Shown piece after piece: positions 1-10,955 of a DNA stretch of 11,673 nucleotides (positions are counted from its first letter, which is position 1; the number at the start of each line of letters is the position of its first letter). The stretch lies in IMG/VR virus record IMGVR_UViG_3300047550_004303, one strand, 5' to 3'. Both the position numbers and the translations under genes were made by a program. The stretch comes from a virus. Taxonomy: Duplodnaviria; Heunggongvirae; Uroviricota; Caudoviricetes. Under the pieces are notes generated by a model that made no database searches, was not told where the DNA came from, and was given only the letters and a program-made list of their open reading frames with translations.

Positions 1-796
1 CACTTGTGCCACTAAATCCACTTCTACCACTGAAGCCACTTACACCACTGAATCCACTTTCACCAGATATCCCTGAAAAGCCACTTAACCCGCTTAGACC
101 ACTGAATCCACTAGTACTTGCGCCACTTTCACCACTTACGCCACTGAATCCACTTATACCTAATGCACCCGAAAATCCGCTTGTACCGCTGACGCCAGAT
201 GGTCCTTGTATTGGTCCAACATTACTCCAAGTATTGTCTCCGTTACTTACTGCTCCATCACCTGCATTGTATCCGCCACCTGAATTAAGTATAATGTAAA
301 GAGTTCCTGCTGGAGTGCCATTTGGTAAATAAGTGTAATCTACTACTGAACCTGCTAGAGTAACAGAAGTACCATTTAATCCACTTATACCACTGAATCC
401 ACTTGTTCCACTGAATCCACTGAAACCACTTATACCTGAACCACTAAAACCACTGGTACCAGATCTGCCACTGAATCCACTTCTACCACTAAATCCGCTT
501 ATACCTGATGCTCCACTAACTCCGGATGGACCTTGTATCGGCCCAATATTACCCCAAGTGTCGTCCCCGTTACTTACTGCTCCATCACCTGCATTGTATC
601 CGCCACCTGAATTAATAACAATATAAAGTGTTCCTGCCGGAGCACCATTTGGTAAAAAAGTGTAATCTGGTACTGTACCTGCAAGTGTTACTGAGGTTCC
701 ATTTAATCCACTTGTACCACTGAAGCCACTTATACCGCAAAAACCACTAATACCACTGGTACCTGATGCACCACTTGTACCACTCGCACCTGATGC
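1..796 (-). repeat. Coding 9-nt-period tandem repeats (AGT-GGN-NNN; Ser-Gly-X) in three tracts at about 1-205, 380-532 and 707-796
   Basis: ccact/ccgct recurs every 9 nt on the + strand and translates as SG[ITVRAE]SGF on the - strand. Confidence 0.95.
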
Positions 797-907
797 TCTT
801 AAATACAACTCATCAAAATTTTGTTGGGTTTTTTGGAAAGCTGTGCGTATAGCATCAGCGTTGATGTCGTTTGGAAATGAACCAAAATCAATATTTTGTT
901 TAGCCAT
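1..907 (-). CDS. Collagen-like (Gly-X-Ser)n tail/baseplate fibre protein, 5' part only (runs off the window edge, no stop seen)
   Basis: Hand translation from ATG at 907: MAKQNIDFGSFPNDINADAIRTAFQKTQQNFDELYLRASGASGTSGASGTSGISGFCGISGFSGTSGLNGTSVTLAG..., open for 302 codons to the edge. The N-terminus resembles the T4 gp9/gp10-type 'IxxG..xD..D.lR.af.K.N.NFdELY' motif. Absent from the ORF track because it is truncated. Confidence 0.9.
   Translation of the reverse strand, partial: MAKQNIDFGSFPNDINADAIRTAFQKTQQNFDELYLRASGASGTSGASGTSGISGFCGISGFSGTSGLNGTSVTLAGTVPDYTFLPNGAPAGTLYIVINSGGGYNAGDGAVSNGDDTWGNIGPIQGPSGVSGASGISGFSGRSGFSGRSGTSGFSGSGISGFSGFSGTSGFSGISGLNGTSVTLAGSVVDYTYLPNGTPAGTLYIILNSGGGYNAGDGAVSNGDNTWSNVGPIQGPSGVSGTSGFSGALGISGFSGVSGESGASTSGFSGLSGLSGFSGISGESGFSGVSGFSGRSGFSGTS
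185..709 (-). repeat. Two copies (512-709 and 185-382; period 327 nt = 109 codons) of a 66-aa module GLNGTSVTLAG.V.DYT.LPNG.PAGTLYI..NSGGGYNAGDGAVSNGD.TW.N.GPIQGPSGVSG inside the fibre gene
   Basis: Codon-by-codon alignment by eye. Most differences are synonymous, and 240-288 is identical to 567-615 (49 nt). Confidence 0.95.
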
Positions 908-990: not shown

Positions 991-3396
991 TTATCTGAGT
1001 CCTGCTAATTTTTTCCAATCACCAATAGATTCATTAGTAGAATATCCCATTCTATCGTTTTGTCCTGCAATTACAGGGATAGTAGTTTGTCCTGTTGATT
1101 TAGGTTTATTCAAACCACCTGCAATTGTTTGGATCATGAACTCATCATCAGTTGTGAATGTTTCTTCTTTGAACTCTTCAAGACTTTGCCCTGCATCATT
1201 TGCCCATTCATTCAACTCTTCCTCTACATTTTGAGTTGCTAATGCTTGATCTTCGGCTGCTTCGGCTTCTTCATCAGCAGTAGTTTCGGCTGCATCTGTA
1301 TCAGGAGGATTGTCTTCACTTACTTGAAATTCACGTTGTTCGTCATTTTCAACTTCATCAACTTGTTCCTCGTGATCACATCCACAATCACTTTCATATT
1401 CACCGCATGAATCACAAGTTTCTTCCTCTTCACCTTCTTCATCAGCGTAATCTTGACTGTCAGATTGACCTGTTAGTTTTTTCATGATTGACATCATTCC
1501 ATCATGATCACCTACCACTTCAATATCCCCATGTGATTCTTTACCTTGATCACTTGCACCATAATCACTAGACTGTTGATCGCCGAACAAGCCTAAACCA
1601 GCAGTTTTAATCAAGCCTAAAAGTTGTTCAGCTTCCGCATCTTGAGCAGTAACGCTTACTGAGTCAGGCATTCCTTGTTGACCTTTGCTTATAGAAACAG
1701 TCATACCTTCATCAACTTGTTCACTTTCTAAAAGTGCCTGTAGTTGATTATCTAAACTTTCAAAGAAACTATCAGTTTCTAATACTTCTGTGTCTTTGAA
1801 TGTTTGTCCAAATGCCTTGAATGTATCACCTGGTGTGGTGCTTGCCTTATGTCTCATGTATTCTGTTCTATCCATTTCATACATGTCCATTTCGTCTTCT
1901 AGTGTAGGCATTGCTGCACTTGCCATTCCAGAAACTGTTGCTGGTGGCATTGCTGGTGCAGTTTCGTATACACCCTGACCATAGCATTCATCTAAACCTT
2001 CTTTGAAGCCTTCATGATATTCTCTTGCTTCATCCATATCTTCATAACGGCAATTGTATCCTTCTTTTGCTAGTGCGTGTGATTTACCCATTAGTCTAGC
2101 AGCAGAATGTCTATGTGAACTTTCAGTAACTTTTTTCTTTTTCTTGTCACTTGCTGCTTTTTTCATAGATTCTTTTTTGTTTTTATCTTTATCAATATCT
2201 AAGAAATCAGGCTTAGCTTTTTTGCCTTCAAACGTTTTATCGCTTCTACCGGCACCTAAACCTGCACCCATGTCCATTTGATCAGATGGAATGTCTGCTT
2301 CCGCCACACCTTGCTCTTTATATTTTTTAGAAGTACTTGGATCTTTTACAAAACGATTGAAGGCACTTTGTGGATTACCCTTGTCACTATTCTTAATATC
2401 GAGATAACGTGTAGCACCATTCTTCATGGTAATTTTTATTGCCCCTGGTCCAAAATAATCATTAGTAGTCCAACTTGCAGTACCTACTACTTGACCTGTT
2501 TTGTTATTAATAATTTCGTAATCTGTATCTTTTCGTGTCATATCAACACTGCCGAAATCCTCTGGATCACCTGGATGAAATGTTTTTTCAACATTAGTTT
2601 TCTTTAGTGAATAGCCTTCCGCCACACCTTCATTGGCTTTTCTTAGATTTTTAAGAACCGCACCTGCAACACGTTCGCCTGCTGCCTTTGAACCATAACG
2701 TTTGCCTGCACTTGTAGCGATCTTACTGAATTGCTTACCTGGCTTACCGATATCTTTTCCTGCTCTTGCTTTTTTAGCAGAATAATCACCTTCTTTTTCC
2801 TTCATTGGTTGTGTTCCAGTTGGTGCTTGACCTGTTGCACCTGCAGCTGGTTGAGTTGAAGTTTGTGCAGTAGTTTGTACAATTTGTACATCTTTTGGAT
2901 CTATGCCACCTAACATTTTTTGAACTGCTGGATTTTTGCTAGTTAAAACACCTGCTCCAACTTGTTTGTTTTGTGGATTCATCATAGCTAGAGGTTTCAT
3001 CCCTGGAGGTACATTTTCTGAAACAACTTTCATCCAATCTTTCAATGAAGATTTTTTATCAGTACCTTCTGCTACACTTTCTTCTTTCATAGTATGTTTT
3101 ACACTGGCTTTACCAGGTAATTTCTTTGGTTTATTACCAACAATCCAACTCTGTAGTGTATCAGTATCCCACTTCTTTACCTCACCAGTTTCGCTATCAG
3201 CACCTTTCTTAGGACGACCACGACCACGTTTTGCGGCTGGTTCAGCTTTCTTTTCATCGTCATCTTTGTCAGGGTTAGTTTCTGGATCATAGCCGCCATA
3301 ACGTCCTGGTTTGGCTTTGTGTTTTACACCTGTCTTTGTTTCTTCTTTAGCCTCAGACAATTGGTTTAATTGGTCTAATAATGATTTAAAATCCAT
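991..3396 (-). CDS. 801-aa modular low-complexity protein; putative internal head protein or protease-processed polyprotein (basic N-half, acidic C-half)
   Basis: Long ORF with SD AAGGA 7 nt before the ATG. It carries many [LIVMF]-X-E motifs (LSE/A, VAE/G x2, VSE/N, VAE/A, VTE/S, LLE/S, VDE/G), an AT-hook KRGRGRPKK and a C-terminal DWKKLAGLR. The function is inferred. Confidence 0.8.
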   Translation of the reverse strand: MDFKSLLDQLNQLSEAKEETKTGVKHKAKPGRYGGYDPETNPDKDDDEKKAEPAAKRGRGRPKKGADSETGEVKKWDTDTLQSWIVGNKPKKLPGKASVKHTMKEESVAEGTDKKSSLKDWMKVVSENVPPGMKPLAMMNPQNKQVGAGVLTSKNPAVQKMLGGIDPKDVQIVQTTAQTSTQPAAGATGQAPTGTQPMKEKEGDYSAKKARAGKDIGKPGKQFSKIATSAGKRYGSKAAGERVAGAVLKNLRKANEGVAEGYSLKKTNVEKTFHPGDPEDFGSVDMTRKDTDYEIINNKTGQVVGTASWTTNDYFGPGAIKITMKNGATRYLDIKNSDKGNPQSAFNRFVKDPSTSKKYKEQGVAEADIPSDQMDMGAGLGAGRSDKTFEGKKAKPDFLDIDKDKNKKESMKKAASDKKKKKVTESSHRHSAARLMGKSHALAKEGYNCRYEDMDEAREYHEGFKEGLDECYGQGVYETAPAMPPATVSGMASAAMPTLEDEMDMYEMDRTEYMRHKASTTPGDTFKAFGQTFKDTEVLETDSFFESLDNQLQALLESEQVDEGMTVSISKGQQGMPDSVSVTAQDAEAEQLLGLIKTAGLGLFGDQQSSDYGASDQGKESHGDIEVVGDHDGMMSIMKKLTGQSDSQDYADEEGEEEETCDSCGEYESDCGCDHEEQVDEVENDEQREFQVSEDNPPDTDAAETTADEEAEAAEDQALATQNVEEELNEWANDAGQSLEEFKEETFTTDDEFMIQTIAGGLNKPKSTGQTTIPVIAGQNDRMGYSTNESIGDWKKLAGLR
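2298..2630 (-). repeat. Perfect 15-bp direct repeat AAGGTGTGGCGGAAG at 2616-2630 and 2298-2312 (318 bp = 106 codons apart), flanking an in-frame module
   Basis: Both copies read cttccgccacacctt on the + strand, with mismatches immediately outside both ends. They encode (E/Q)GVAE(G/A). Confidence 0.95.
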
Positions 3397-4577: not shown

Positions 4578-5012
4578 TTATTTTCTACCGTTATGAAACA
4601 ATTGATCTTCATTCAAAACTCTAAATCCATAGCCTTGACTTTTACAATATGCTGCTGCTGACTGCCATTTTGCATGATTAATTGCAATTACGGCTCTGTC
4701 TTTTACACTCATTGCTTTATTTTCCATCAAACTTTGTTTTTTTGGTTTTATTTCAACTATCTCAGCTAATCTTTTTCCGTATTTGTTTTCATAGACTACG
4801 AAAAAATCAGGTATATAATTAGCTGGTTTACCTGTCAAAGGATGTTTATAAGGTATAGTTATGCTTTCACTTGCCCAATACAATATGTTATTGTTAGAAT
4901 CTAAAAAATTCATGAATGCCATTTCCCAACCAGAACGATAACGAGGTTTGTGATTCCCTACATATTTCTGTGGGTTTTTAGGAGTGAATATACCTTGTGC
5001 CCATCTAGTCAT
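4578..5012 (-). CDS. Head completion nuclease, T4 gp4-like (TnsA-N-like PD-(D/E)xK fold)
   Basis: Motifs GxFxPKNPxKYVG, YRSGWE, WASE, YIPDF and VEIKP; INHAKWQSA near the C-terminus; size 144 aa. ATGA overlap with the upstream gene. Confidence 0.8.
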   Translation of the reverse strand: MTRWAQGIFTPKNPQKYVGNHKPRYRSGWEMAFMNFLDSNNNILYWASESITIPYKHPLTGKPANYIPDFFVVYENKYGKRLAEIVEIKPKKQSLMENKAMSVKDRAVIAINHAKWQSAAAYCKSQGYGFRVLNEDQLFHNGRK

Positions 5013-7160: not shown

Positions 7161-7188
7161 ATAGAATGGGCTGTTACGCCCATTCTAT
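7161..7188. terminator. 11-bp stem hairpin ATAGAATGGGC-TGTTAC-GCCCATTCTAT at the sheath stop codon; terminator or RNA stability/processing element
   Basis: Perfect inverted repeat 7161-7171/7178-7188. The U-tract on the minus strand is weak. Confidence 0.65.
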
Positions 7189-10100
7189 TATAATGCTGCT
7201 ATTTCTCCTGTGTTGAGAATTCTTACTGGTATGTAAATAAATTCAACAGCTTTAACCGGTTCAATTGCAACATCTACCCACAATTCATTTCTATCAATTC
7301 TTGCAGGCGTATTGTTTGATTCATCGCATATCACCAAATAATCATAGATACCACGTTTTGATTGTGTATCTAACATTAGAGTTGATATAACTCCTGAAAT
7401 TTGTCCACGAGTTAATGAATCATTTGGTTCGAAGATAAACGGTCTTGCAGCAATAGTCAATTGTCTTCTTAAGTAAGCAATCAATCTTGCAACGTTTGTT
7501 CTATCCAATGCACTCTGTGAGTTGAAACTGGTCTTGTTGCCAAAATTCAACAAACCTTGACCAGTAAAGAATACTAATGGGTTGATAAAGTTTGTATACA
7601 ATACATCTCTGATTCCCAAACTAGTTCTTACTACCTGGAATTCACCAGTTTGACGATTGACATATCCAATATTTGTAGCATTGTCAATTAAACCTCTACG
7701 TGTACCTGCTGCTGCAAACCAAGGATAAGCAATACTGTCATTTCTGATGAATGTTCTTAACATCATATGTGATGCAGGAACAGCAACTAAATTACCACTT
7801 AAATCACTTGCTATTCCACTTGGATAGAAGAGACCTAAATATGTATTTCTTGTTACTAATCCATCTTCACCTGTACTTGTTGCACCAGCAGTGTTATTAG
7901 CCCAAGCAGAAATTGCAGTTGCGTTATCAGCTAATCCCATTGGGGTATCGCCGATAATATAACCTGTTTCACCTCTGTCAGCATTCAATACAACCATGTT
8001 AGGTTGAAGTTCTGGATAGTTAGGTGCTGCTAGTAAGTTGAAGAATACATCTTCATCTCTAATAGTAACGTTAGTATCAATTGTTGCTCTCATTGCTTCA
8101 ACAACCATTGCTCTTTGAGCCTTACGACCCATATAAGGAGCACCATTAGATTGTAATCCACTTACGCTTACCCATGTGTATGGGAACTCAGGTAAGTTAG
8201 CAGTATTAGTTGGATCACCTGCATCAAATGCACCTGCGTCAGGGAAGTTTGCATTGTTGAAATAATTTGAGTTAAATTCTTTCACATTATAACCTGATCT
8301 ACGTGTGTTGAATAACAACATTCCAGTTGGATACAAACTTACATCTAGAACATCTAAATCAACATAATCACTTGTTAGCAAGCTTTTTATTGTTGGGATA
8401 GGATCATCTACTGGATTTATTGCACCAGATGATGACCAACGTGCATCAGCAAATACTATTCCACTTGGATTAGTTTGGTCGGTATTATCAATTAAAACCC
8501 ATTGATCTACACCATCAGCTTGTTGCCAACGATAAATGATTGGATAGTTATCTAGATCACTTGTATCAATCCAAATATCACCATATACCAAATCAGTGCC
8601 ATCGCTCTGTGTTGTTGGTGCACTTGCAGTGACAATTGGACCGTTAGGATCTGTGCTGTTGCTTCCTGTTAATGGGAATCCATTAAGGTCATAATCTTGA
8701 TTTCTATAACCTCTCCAAGCGCCATCAAAATTTATCATGATGTCAACTTGATCTACTTCGCTGTAGAACCAATTTGTACCATTTGATGGTGTATTGACTG
8801 GTGCACCTTCATTTGCAGTATAAGCAAATTCTCTCCAGTTGCTTAGTTCTACTGCATAAAGATTATCTGGAGTACCACTTTCAAATGCGATACGTTGTAC
8901 GTTTCCAGATCCACCTACTTGTAATACTGTAGCTACTAAATCATTAGTAGTAGTTTCACCTCCCAAAAGAGATCCATCTACAGTAACACTATCACCAACT
9001 ACATAACCTGAACCAGCAGATCCGAAAGTATTTGCGTTAACAGTGTAATAACCATATCCTGATGCAATCGCAGTAATTGTTAAGCTACTACCAGATCCAC
9101 CTGTTGTAGCTACCGCAGCATATGTTGTATTAAAAGCATTATAGTTTTTGACACCATCAGTAGTACCAGCTACGAAACCGGCTAATTCTAATAATGCACT
9201 TGATCTACCTATTCCAGCACCACTAGTAATCTTATCACTGAGGATAATAGAACCACCTGCAGTATGTATCAACTGTATTGCACCATCAGTAGTTACATTT
9301 GCGTCTGTATAAGGAATACCTGCAGCCAACCATTGTGTTACAAAATCAGTTGCGTCACTTATTCCAGCAAGACCAGGAACAGTATATGTTGTAGATAATG
9401 AAGAAGAACCTGGAGTTGAAACTTGAGCGGTCAATTGATATACAGGTTGTGCAACACCAGTTCCTGAACCAGTAGCAGTAGCAACGAAAACTGTGTTTAG
9501 GTTGTTATCAGCCGCACCGCATGCTGTCCATGTTGTAGAACCTACTGTAGTAATTTTGTATGTTCTTCCGATTTCCAAATCAGCAGGAGCAACTGTAGCT
9601 AAGAAATCTGGATTTTCTACTGAACCAGTAATTACTGTGTCACCAGATGCAAATCTTTCCCATAGATAAACAGGAGCAGTTGGGAATAAATTGTTGTTGA
9701 AATTGTATTGACCGTAAACTGTACCTGCTGGTATAGCCTGTCCACCGGTCGAATCTAGCGCAGCAGTAGCAGCAGCATCGCTTACTGCTAAAGATACTGT
9801 TTTGTTTTGCCAAGAAACTAAAGTACTATCCCATTCAGCCACAACTGGAGCTAAACCAGATCCACCTGCTTTTAACCAAACTGAGCCGTTTGGTCTAGAA
9901 TATGTTTGACCTGTTTGCCATAATGGTTGTTGAGCACTTGTTCCCCATTGAACAATTGGACGATAATAGTTAGTTGCAGCAGTAATACCCAAAGTAGCTA
10001 GTGGTGTACCTGAAGTGTTTGCAAAACTTAAATATCTTGGGGTGCTTACAGGAGATCCTGATGTTGGGGTATTAACTTCTGGGTAAGTCAAGAATACACA

Positions 10101-10955
10101 TAACTTACCATCACGAACTTCTGCTGTTAGATATGTCACAGCGAGGTTGTTAATGGCTGTAGCAACGGATTCGATATTTCCTGAAACTGCAACTGATAAT
10201 GAAACATCACCTGATAAACTGATAGTGAAAGTACCTGTTATTGTTCCAGTTGGAGCTTCAGTTCCTTGAACAGTTGGAACATCTACAGCCCAATCATCAG
10301 ATCCTAAAACTACCCAAACATTGTCTGTAGTCTTGTAAAAATATTGTCCTGCTTGTGCTGAAGCTGGAGCATATTCATTTATGTCTAACGCATTTACCGC
10401 ATAATCACCGATATTGCCGATGCTTGCTATAGGTACACTGCCTGATAATGAACCGCTATCAGTAATTACTATTGGGCTTTGTAGTGTAAATTTACCAGTA
10501 GTTTTGTTCCACTGATATATTCCCCATGTTGATGTAGTAGCATTTAACCAATAACTACCTGCATCAGGAAGACCTGATGGTCTGCTTGTTTGACCTACTA
10601 AACTTGCCAAATCAATATCTGCTCTCAAAACAAAGCAACGATTTGTTACGCCTAACAATGAATATGCTGCCAATAGACCATACTCATTGAGTTCATAACC
10701 TTGAATAGGTGTACCATTTGATGTCTGATAGAAAAATGGTGTACCATATAGTGTTACTAGATCACGTTGACTAGTTACTTCAAAAACTCTTCCTGCATTT
10801 GCTGCGGTTGTAGCAGCAGCAACACCCACACCATTGGGGTCTGCTTTATCTTGTGCAGTAGCAACTAATACGAATGGTACTGAATTTGTTGGAGCTGGTA
10901 AATATTGACTTTGGTCAATTACACTAACTTCTACGCCTGGTGATGTAAGGGCCAT
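7188..10955 (-). CDS. Contractile tail sheath protein (T4 gp18-like) with large insertions
   Basis: N-terminal MALTSPGVEVSVIDQSQY. C-terminal sheath core YPWFAAAGTRRG, INP, GNKT, SALDRTNVARL, FIFEPND, ICDESNNTPARIDRNELWVDVAIEPVKAVEFIYIP. SD AAAGGA. Confidence 0.95.
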   Translation of the reverse strand: MALTSPGVEVSVIDQSQYLPAPTNSVPFVLVATAQDKADPNGVGVAAATTAANAGRVFEVTSQRDLVTLYGTPFFYQTSNGTPIQGYELNEYGLLAAYSLLGVTNRCFVLRADIDLASLVGQTSRPSGLPDAGSYWLNATTSTWGIYQWNKTTGKFTLQSPIVITDSGSLSGSVPIASIGNIGDYAVNALDINEYAPASAQAGQYFYKTTDNVWVVLGSDDWAVDVPTVQGTEAPTGTITGTFTISLSGDVSLSVAVSGNIESVATAINNLAVTYLTAEVRDGKLCVFLTYPEVNTPTSGSPVSTPRYLSFANTSGTPLATLGITAATNYYRPIVQWGTSAQQPLWQTGQTYSRPNGSVWLKAGGSGLAPVVAEWDSTLVSWQNKTVSLAVSDAAATAALDSTGGQAIPAGTVYGQYNFNNNLFPTAPVYLWERFASGDTVITGSVENPDFLATVAPADLEIGRTYKITTVGSTTWTACGAADNNLNTVFVATATGSGTGVAQPVYQLTAQVSTPGSSSLSTTYTVPGLAGISDATDFVTQWLAAGIPYTDANVTTDGAIQLIHTAGGSIILSDKITSGAGIGRSSALLELAGFVAGTTDGVKNYNAFNTTYAAVATTGGSGSSLTITAIASGYGYYTVNANTFGSAGSGYVVGDSVTVDGSLLGGETTTNDLVATVLQVGGSGNVQRIAFESGTPDNLYAVELSNWREFAYTANEGAPVNTPSNGTNWFYSEVDQVDIMINFDGAWRGYRNQDYDLNGFPLTGSNSTDPNGPIVTASAPTTQSDGTDLVYGDIWIDTSDLDNYPIIYRWQQADGVDQWVLIDNTDQTNPSGIVFADARWSSSGAINPVDDPIPTIKSLLTSDYVDLDVLDVSLYPTGMLLFNTRRSGYNVKEFNSNYFNNANFPDAGAFDAGDPTNTANLPEFPYTWVSVSGLQSNGAPYMGRKAQRAMVVEAMRATIDTNVTIRDEDVFFNLLAAPNYPELQPNMVVLNADRGETGYIIGDTPMGLADNATAISAWANNTAGATSTGEDGLVTRNTYLGLFYPSGIASDLSGNLVAVPASHMMLRTFIRNDSIAYPWFAAAGTRRGLIDNATNIGYVNRQTGEFQVVRTSLGIRDVLYTNFINPLVFFTGQGLLNFGNKTSFNSQSALDRTNVARLIAYLRRQLTIAARPFIFEPNDSLTRGQISGVISTLMLDTQSKRGIYDYLVICDESNNTPARIDRNELWVDVAIEPVKAVEFIYIPVRILNTGEIAAL

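Follow-up and report, generated by a model that had tools for sequence, protein, structure and literature searches.

A short coding repeat bounds apparently exchangeable in-frame cassettes in a probable prohead-associated protein of an uncultured jumbo myophage

The window analyzed here is a stretch of 11,673 nucleotides of the IMG/VR virus record IMGVR_UViG_3300047550_004303, a 121-kb record with a CheckV completeness estimate of 35% whose source is an uncultured jumbo myophage. On its minus strand, at positions 991–3396, the window carries a gene for an 801-aa protein (P0001), termed the carrier, which is basic in its N-terminal half and acidic in its C-terminal half and has one cassette slot. 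The slot is bounded by two perfect copies of a 15-nt sequence, termed the junction or J, that lie in the same reading frame. Comparison of related genes makes it very probable that whole coding cassettes are exchanged at J. The full explanation, in which the 318-bp unit is an exchangeable in-frame cassette in the single slot of a probable prohead-associated carrier and its product is freed by a protease cutting at J, is the one favored here on balance.

A junction repeat held at the DNA level

Two copies of the 15-mer AAGGTGTGGCGGAAG, at 2298–2312 and 2616–2630 of the minus strand, are the only ones in the window even when two mismatches are allowed. Both copies share one frame of the 801-aa open reading frame (ORF), are spaced by 318 bp (106 codons) and are identical to each other over exactly 15 nt. 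The upstream copy (2616–2630) encodes (E)GVAE(G), aa 256–261, and the cassette starts directly after it; the downstream copy (2298–2312) encodes (Q)GVAE(A), aa 362–367, and is directly followed by the backbone sequence ADIPSDQ. Between them lies the interior of the cassette, the "YSLKK" module (2314–2613, minus strand; aa 262–361). The chance expectation for a 15-mer pair in the window is 0.02, and two copies arose in none of 200 shuffles. This expectation speaks against a chance repeat or an assembly artefact, an explanation to which next to no weight is given: short repeats can mislead assemblers, and Logan contigs do break at this one, but the same architecture is found in independent ENA, JGI, NCBI and Logan assemblies, and one contig covers the whole stretch with zero differences.

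The repeat stands out in its codons. Its G+C content is 60%, and its 13-nt core, GGTGTGGCGGAAG, has seven exact copies in the genome record, each of which lies on the coding strand and encodes GVAE in frame. These are limited to two late or virion-type genes, where they flank variable modules: two lie in the 801-aa gene and the other five beside the terminase in a 959-aa gene, where a further copy with one mismatch reads GMAEG. GTG accounts for 9% of the valine codons of this genome and GCG for 7% of its alanine codons, each being the rarest for its residue. GGT GTG GCG GAA is nonetheless used at all seven genomic GVAE sites, with 0.27% expected per site from codon usage, and GTG-GCG is used at none of the 13 other V-A-E sites. 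A codon set that is rare yet uniform at GVAE, and absent from other V-A-E sites, places the identity at the DNA level. The peptide SVAEG of the carrier (aa 107–111; 3064–3078, minus strand), which is found in close orthologs only and marks no cassette junction, provides an internal control for this claim and is encoded by AGT GTA GCA GAA GGT. An earlier note, made by a model from the letters of this DNA alone, had described the paired repeat with its spacing, frames, G+C content and uncommon codons, had contrasted it with SVAEG, and had concluded that the identity was not only at the protein level; all of this is borne out here.

Orthologs point the same way. The exact 13-mer is found at 18 of the ~24 GVAE cassette junctions of 11 orthologous genes, the remainder being one base off, and the native first junction of these genes, which reads GVSE, uses other codons. 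Between the window and its homolog in L090 protein identity is 59%, and identical residues use identical codons at a frequency of 0.56, which predicts 0.12 per GVAE site; the six junctions of L090 and the seven of this genome are all 13 identical. One cassette is common to the window genome and L090, and its two copies show frequent silent differences inside and identical junctions at both ends. By this codon evidence, J is held at the DNA level while cassette interiors and backbone drift.

A wider survey was made in IMG/VR. The raw count of the 15-mer there (at least 120 matches) is uninformative because a synonymous control 15-mer likewise gave at least 120, 75% of them in frame; the evidence kept from this survey was copy clustering, the QGVAEG context and a codon tally from which one ascertained copy per locus had first been removed. 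Among the matches listed, two to five copies of J occurred at 22 of 80 loci, compared with none of 80 for the synonymous control; QGVAEG was the dominant context of the 15-mer; and the exact 12-mer was used at 43% of in-frame GVAE sites against 0.9% expected, with most other sites one silent change off. The J-bearing loci among these matches range from 33% to ~50% G+C.

Such constancy could have another cause at the level of nucleic acid. J might be a translational pause, made of rare or Shine-Dalgarno-like codons, that aids folding of the module, or a site bound or cut by a phage protein such as a homing-type nuclease, with the cassette boundaries secondary. GTG and GCG are indeed the rarest valine and alanine codons here, the motif holds AAGGTG and GGAAGG, which resemble ribosome-binding purine runs, and the silent positions are conserved across diverged lineages. 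The letters are kept, however, from the 33% to the ~50% G+C contigs, in which these codons are not equally rare; no start codon follows J; and a search for a hairpin or inverted repeat at J and its flanks found folding no better than in shuffles (z about -0.7). Decayed junctions with single silent changes also retain their cassettes, and this explanation leaves breakpoints falling exactly at the motif unaccounted for, so that it appears quite improbable. J is in any case an unusually clean instance of conserved silent sites within coding sequence, for which recombination, translation and protein binding can be separated experimentally.

Cassette turnover at a single slot

The carrier belongs to a family with more than 2000 metagenomic homologs and no Pfam domain, and P0001 itself is also encoded on a 158-kb contig. 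In an alignment of 12 orthologs, aa 1–255 and 368–801 are conserved and the sequences between the junctions are unrelated. Cassette states were surveyed in the 120 best homologs of the carrier. Two of these, P0018 and P0019, are empty sites, the latter reading ..EGVSE/ADIPSDQ (the slash marks the boundary), and the most distant members read ..KTNE/ADIPSDQ at the slot; single cassettes, two-cassette arrays and an array of six (P0025) are found among the others. Clustering gave ~14 unrelated cassette families of 54–127 aa at this one slot, one of which is common to the 801-aa family and the 959-aa gene of the same genome. The cassettes lie in frame in one ORF and have no start or stop codon of their own. 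Each brings its own 3' tail, (C/G)AAGGTGTGGCGGAAG, encoding (Q/E)GVAE, and an inserted cassette is therefore always found between two copies of J.

The boundaries of exchange can be placed closely. In backbones whose DNA flanks are 92–99% identical to the window, the match stops 13–19 nt from the junction start on both sides. The window module is 98% identical in P0009, a protein with a backbone only 68% identical. The earlier note had proposed a swappable module bounded by the repeat; the breaks at J in near-identical backbones, the empty sites and the diversity of cassettes at the slot all agree with this, as does the confinement of J to in-frame positions beside variable modules. A 54-aa cassette, "SKKIPASN," is tandemly duplicated in L098 (P0012) and in P0013; judged from its arrangement, this is the product expected of unequal exchange between J copies.

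In co-infecting or concatemeric phage genomes, non-allelic J copies are proposed to recombine by the ordinary homologous or short-homology route, and cassettes would thereby be added, deleted, duplicated or swapped with the frame kept. One crossover between non-allelic copies would yield a two-cassette product and an empty product. Only intact copies of J would recombine in this way, and J would stay uniform for that reason.

Several observations weigh against an exchange that works through J alone. DNA identity between the window and L097 is raised over approximately aa 205–370, and the left breakpoint of this recent transfer falls in conserved backbone near aa 200 rather than at J, which shows that flanking homology also moves cassettes. 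In three other genomes the left junction of the YSLKK cassette is one nucleotide off the canonical sequence, so a perfect 15-nt repeat does not invariably accompany this cassette; the repeat in the window may have been reset by exchange with flanking homology. Excision was checked in the assembled (Logan) contigs of public runs, and these gave no valid excision joint and no read-level excision product. The contigs break at both J copies, the junction is covered at three to four times the depth of its flanks, and J is bordered by many different sequences. Apparent "skip" joints were rejected as excision products, being supported by only 18–25 nt on one side, which is what a multi-copy repeat gives.

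Precise boundaries, and one site common to many unrelated cassettes in several host genes, are also what a true integron-like system would produce, in which a dedicated site-specific recombinase recognizes the 15-mer and inserts or excises discrete cassettes. The earlier note had called the system integron-like, and as a mechanism this is not supported here. A PF00589 search for a tyrosine recombinase in the incomplete 121-kb record found no match, while the control genomes all matched; J has no inverted-repeat or hairpin character of the attC kind; and the cassettes, which lack start codons, are not separate ORFs. Genes for a UvsX-type recombinase and a gp32-like protein are present in the genome; such recombination genes suffice, and the L097 transfer used flanking homology. 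A dedicated recombinase is accordingly considered very unlikely; the system is not integron-like, and the analogy is a loose picture only.

Side observations from the survey show that other inserts use the same place. In one carrier subclade (P0087, P0088, P0099, P0106 and P0117), unrelated inserts occupy the same backbone position and are bounded by ..KLEE and ..KVKE/G instead of GVAE, so that the slot is a hot spot of insertion at which more than one junction dialect is used. The insert of P0106 resembles a segment in the N-terminal half of the 959-aa protein of this genome. The gene for that second carrier (G000 61311–64190; L001:6312–9191) directly follows the terminase, and one of its cassettes, of 81 aa, has two CxxC pairs and is zinc-ribbon-like.

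The YSLKK module and candidate protease sites

Taken with its junction tail, the YSLKK module is a small, basic unit of 106 aa and 11.8 kDa with an isoelectric point of 8.8. Its fold was predicted with a predicted local distance difference test (pLDDT) score of 68 from the single sequence and of 82 by AlphaFold with an alignment of 29 homologs. The model has a five-stranded antiparallel sheet, then two helices and an unstructured tail at the junction, and the junctions around the module are predicted to be disordered; the earlier note's impression of a globular, beta-rich segment thus finds its counterpart in a compact predicted domain. Fold searches of PDB, BFVD, AFDB clusters and the Atlas, together with a wide VIA search, yielded beta-sheet matches that were all weak and non-specific (best Z 5.9; best Foldseek E 0.008).

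An exhaustive profile-free search for the module alone, which the earlier note had suggested looking for in other host proteins, found it at many positions in 35 representative proteins of 107–1601 aa. It is hosted by the 801-aa and 959-aa families and by no fewer than two further carrier families, also occurs in stand-alone genes, and is almost always preceded by hydrophobic-x-Glu/Gly. Three stand-alone or N-terminal forms (P0143–P0145), one of them on a 143-kb phage contig, start M-R-A-K-E-F-I-T-E/G, M-K-L-T-E-I-L-S-E/G and M-R-F-K-E-F-I-S-E/G. The capsid-targeting sequence (CTS) of T4 is MKTYQEFIAE (PMC8442874), and the leaders of these stand-alone modules, of 10 residues, are a near-copy of it that ends at the E/G boundary. 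The module of the window has no N-terminus of its own; it is preceded inside the carrier by ..NEGVAE/G.

The carrier itself has further candidate sites of this kind. Its N-terminal leader of 15 residues (3352–3396, minus strand) ends L-S-E/A and is a candidate capsid-targeting leader; a leader with hydrophobic-x-E and then a small residue is present in 93 of the homologs listed. Between the basic linker and the acidic C-terminal domain lies V-T-E/S (aa 423–426; 2119–2130, minus strand), in which V, E and S are invariant across 12 orthologs. Cuts at the leader, at both J copies and at V-T-E/S would divide the protein into an N-terminal part and a linker that are both basic, the 11.8-kDa module between them, and a very acidic C-terminal part of 41 kDa. 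The C-terminal WKKLAGLR (994–1017, minus strand) matches the ends of gp22-like scaffold proteins in the relatives PA5oct, G002 and G005 (..RRLAGIK, ..KRLAGL), and a C-terminal KKLAG-type motif occurs in only two of the 222 ORFs of this genome, namely the 801-aa and 959-aa carriers. In the relatives, scaffold proteins L095 (G002), L088/L092 (PA5oct) and L224/L225 (G005) all end (K/R)RLAG(L/I), a shared ending that may be a capsid- or portal-binding tag. PA5oct gp278, which mass spectrometry has identified as a virion protein, is matched by the N-terminal domain of the 959-aa carrier.

G002, PA5oct and the J-bearing G005 (300 kb) each encode a T4 gp21-type protease (Peptidase_S77), which has the genes for a scaffold protein and a gp23-like capsid protein as its neighbors; PA5oct is without any junction copy. 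The capsid-protein N-termini of these three phages have L-A-E, L-V-E or L-K-E just before the conserved mature start, sites which correspond to the T4 gp23 cut after L-T-E. The junction variants found in nature are GVSE, GVTE, GVKE, GMAE, GLKE and KVKE, with TNE, VSE and MNE as ancestral forms, and all of them keep a hydrophobic or similar residue at P3, Glu at P1 and then Ala, Gly or Ser. Taken together, these patterns make it probable that V-A-E at J is a prohead-protease site.

Some findings count against release at J and against what is proposed to follow from it. Val at P3 differs from the classic Leu or Ile of T4 sites. No protease, capsid-protein or scaffold gene was found in the 121-kb record, which is 35% complete, and the protease link therefore rests on relatives. 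In G005 the proteins that carry J are without the scaffold-like C-terminal motif, for which reason the KKLAG-type ending was rejected as a trait common to all carriers. The module matched no family, defence-related or other, in Pfam, PHROGs or PADLOC, and since it has neither a recognizable fold nor a recognizable family, nothing points to an anti-defence role. The earlier note's proposal of a V-A-E prohead-protease site thus has indirect support, from the S77 protease of relatives, the hydrophobic-x-E pattern of all junction variants and the CTS-like leader of stand-alone homologs.

Ig-like and other accessory domains are often added to phage structural proteins. The cassettes might likewise be swappable domains of a chain that is never cut, with GVAEG as a flexible inter-domain linker and the modules working attached, as decoration or interaction domains. 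The predicted disorder of the junction residues is what any linker would show, and the lack of a protease gene in the phage's own 121-kb record also fits. A mere linker would not, however, need the Glu at P1, the hydrophobic P3 and the small P1' residue that all variants keep; stand-alone homologs whose 10-residue T4 CTS-like leader ends at the same E/G boundary, and the S77 protease of the lineage, also speak against it. An uncut chain is thus regarded as unlikely, if less so than the other alternatives weighed above.

Under the favored explanation, with cassette exchange at J and release by the protease, the carrier would be loaded into the prohead by its CTS-like leader and scaffold-like C-terminus and then cut at J, hydrophobic-x-Glu followed by Gly or Ala being the putative cut site of the lineage's T4 gp21-type (Peptidase S77) prohead protease. 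A basic module of ~12 kDa would stay behind in the head, as T4 internal proteins do, and might, more speculatively, be ejected with the DNA and act on the host. Delivery of the module into the host is given somewhat less than an even chance, and an anti-defence role for it is speculation by analogy with T4 Ip1-3 only (PMC12373910). More tentative still is the broadest view, in which J would be a dual-coded evolvability element, kept for two roles: as the recombination handle by which any small protein could be plugged in frame into several carriers addressed to the capsid, and as the site where the protease later frees it. In that case head-packaged, injected effectors would make up a population-wide library common to uncultured jumbo phages, in effect a protein-level integron without an integrase.

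If the favored explanation is true, giant phages vary their head-packed and probably injected proteins while leaving gene order, promoters and reading frames untouched, and a single short sequence is both the point of exchange and the point of release. The T4 internal-protein paradigm would extend to a large group of uncultured freshwater phages, every J-bounded module would become a candidate injected effector, and the carriers would offer a natural design for loading foreign proteins into phage heads. Limited literature searches found no published description of the J cassette system.

Genomic setting and comparison with known systems

The window stretch is present in freshwater metagenomes of 15 studies, and the large terminase of the genome shares 50% identity with its counterpart in Pseudomonas phage PA5oct. 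Searches of the GenBank phage collection with the carrier, the window and the module gave no match, and no cultured phage with the module was found there. Pfam, PHROGs and PADLOC assigned no function to the carrier and its cassettes and gave no informative PHROG match, and an ESM Atlas feature search returned no match. In the window the carrier is accompanied by a tail sheath protein, two tail-tube paralogs and a TnsA-fold "head closure" protein. The tail sheath (7188–10955, minus strand) is unusually long at 1255 aa, a length kept among relatives (1198–1255 aa); only the last ~550 residues match sheath families, and the extra N-terminal ~700 residues contain a weak Flagellin_IN match. The "head closure" protein (4578–5012, minus strand; 144 aa) has a TnsA-like endonuclease fold (PF08722, E 2e-18), is so annotated by PHROGs and in the PA5oct record, and in every relative compared is encoded at the same place, with the tail-tube genes on one side and the carrier on the other. 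Downstream of the carrier, a gene at 2–907 (minus strand) runs past the window edge (G000 118291–121206) and has collagen-like Gly-x-Ser/Thr repeats at its start. The length of this gene varies widely among close relatives (395, 563, 1017, 1092 and >1400 aa), making it a second variable locus beside the cassette slot.

The functionally closest known system is that of the T4 internal proteins IPI, IPII, IPIII and Alt, which are small, basic and mutually unrelated and have in common only a short address or cleavage peptide ending hydrophobic-x-Glu. They are packaged via the prohead core, trimmed by the S77 protease, injected, and highly variable between related phages, their loci in T-even phages being polymorphic, and T4 Ip1-3 inhibit GmrSD-type restriction (PMC8442874, PMC3012670, PMC12373910, PMC2839356). 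In the phages described here the modules are instead in-frame inserts in a larger carrier, with the shared peptide between modules, and are not separate genes each with a leader. The shared element is a fixed coding sequence of 15–18 nt rather than a promoter and leader. Propeptides are also removed from head and ejection proteins of the giant phages phiKZ, 201phi2-1 and SPN3US, where a prohead protease related to that of T4 cleaves many head proteins behind the Glu of a short motif; targeting into the prohead is the role suggested for long propeptides (PMC5694885). These phages differ in having A, S or G at P3 (AXE, SXE) and fixed genes, not cassette arrays, with no exchange junction.

In evolutionary mechanics, the closest parallel is the shuffling mediated by promoter early stem-loop (PeSL) elements in T4-type phages, where variable cassettes are likewise flanked by repeats and close relatives differ at the repeat. 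Insertion, deletion and replacement occur there with crossovers inside the repeat, and the authors liken the elements to integrons without an integrase (Arbiol et al. 2010, PMC2839356; PMC4122927). PeSLs are intergenic units of ~100 bp, an early promoter with a stem-loop, that flank whole ORFs; J is 15–18 nt long, lies inside the reading frame, has no stem-loop, and must both keep the frame and encode a peptide. Integron cassettes (attC/attI, IntI) are alike in that one slot takes many unrelated cassettes with precise boundaries at a shared site. They differ from the present cassettes, for which no integrase was found in the 121-kb record and no folded attC-like site is present, and which lack start codons and are expressed within a host protein; exchange here is probably by general recombination, unlike that of integrons.

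Architecturally, the nearest relatives are the polyvalent proteins, which, as summarized in PMC9503650, are large, virion-embedded proteins with variable arrays of unrelated domains, predicted to be delivered along with the DNA and in some cases to be processed (Iyer, Burroughs, Anand, de Souza and Aravind 2017). They are defined by recognizable conflict domains, such as ADP-ribosyltransferases, anti-restriction domains, peptidases and MuF. Pfam, PADLOC and PHROGs detected no conflict domain in the present proteins, and no description of a DNA-fixed junction in polyvalent proteins was found. What appears to set the J cassettes apart from T4 internal proteins, PeSLs and polyvalent proteins alike is an in-frame coding element of 15–18 nt that would serve as exchange point and candidate cleavage site at once.

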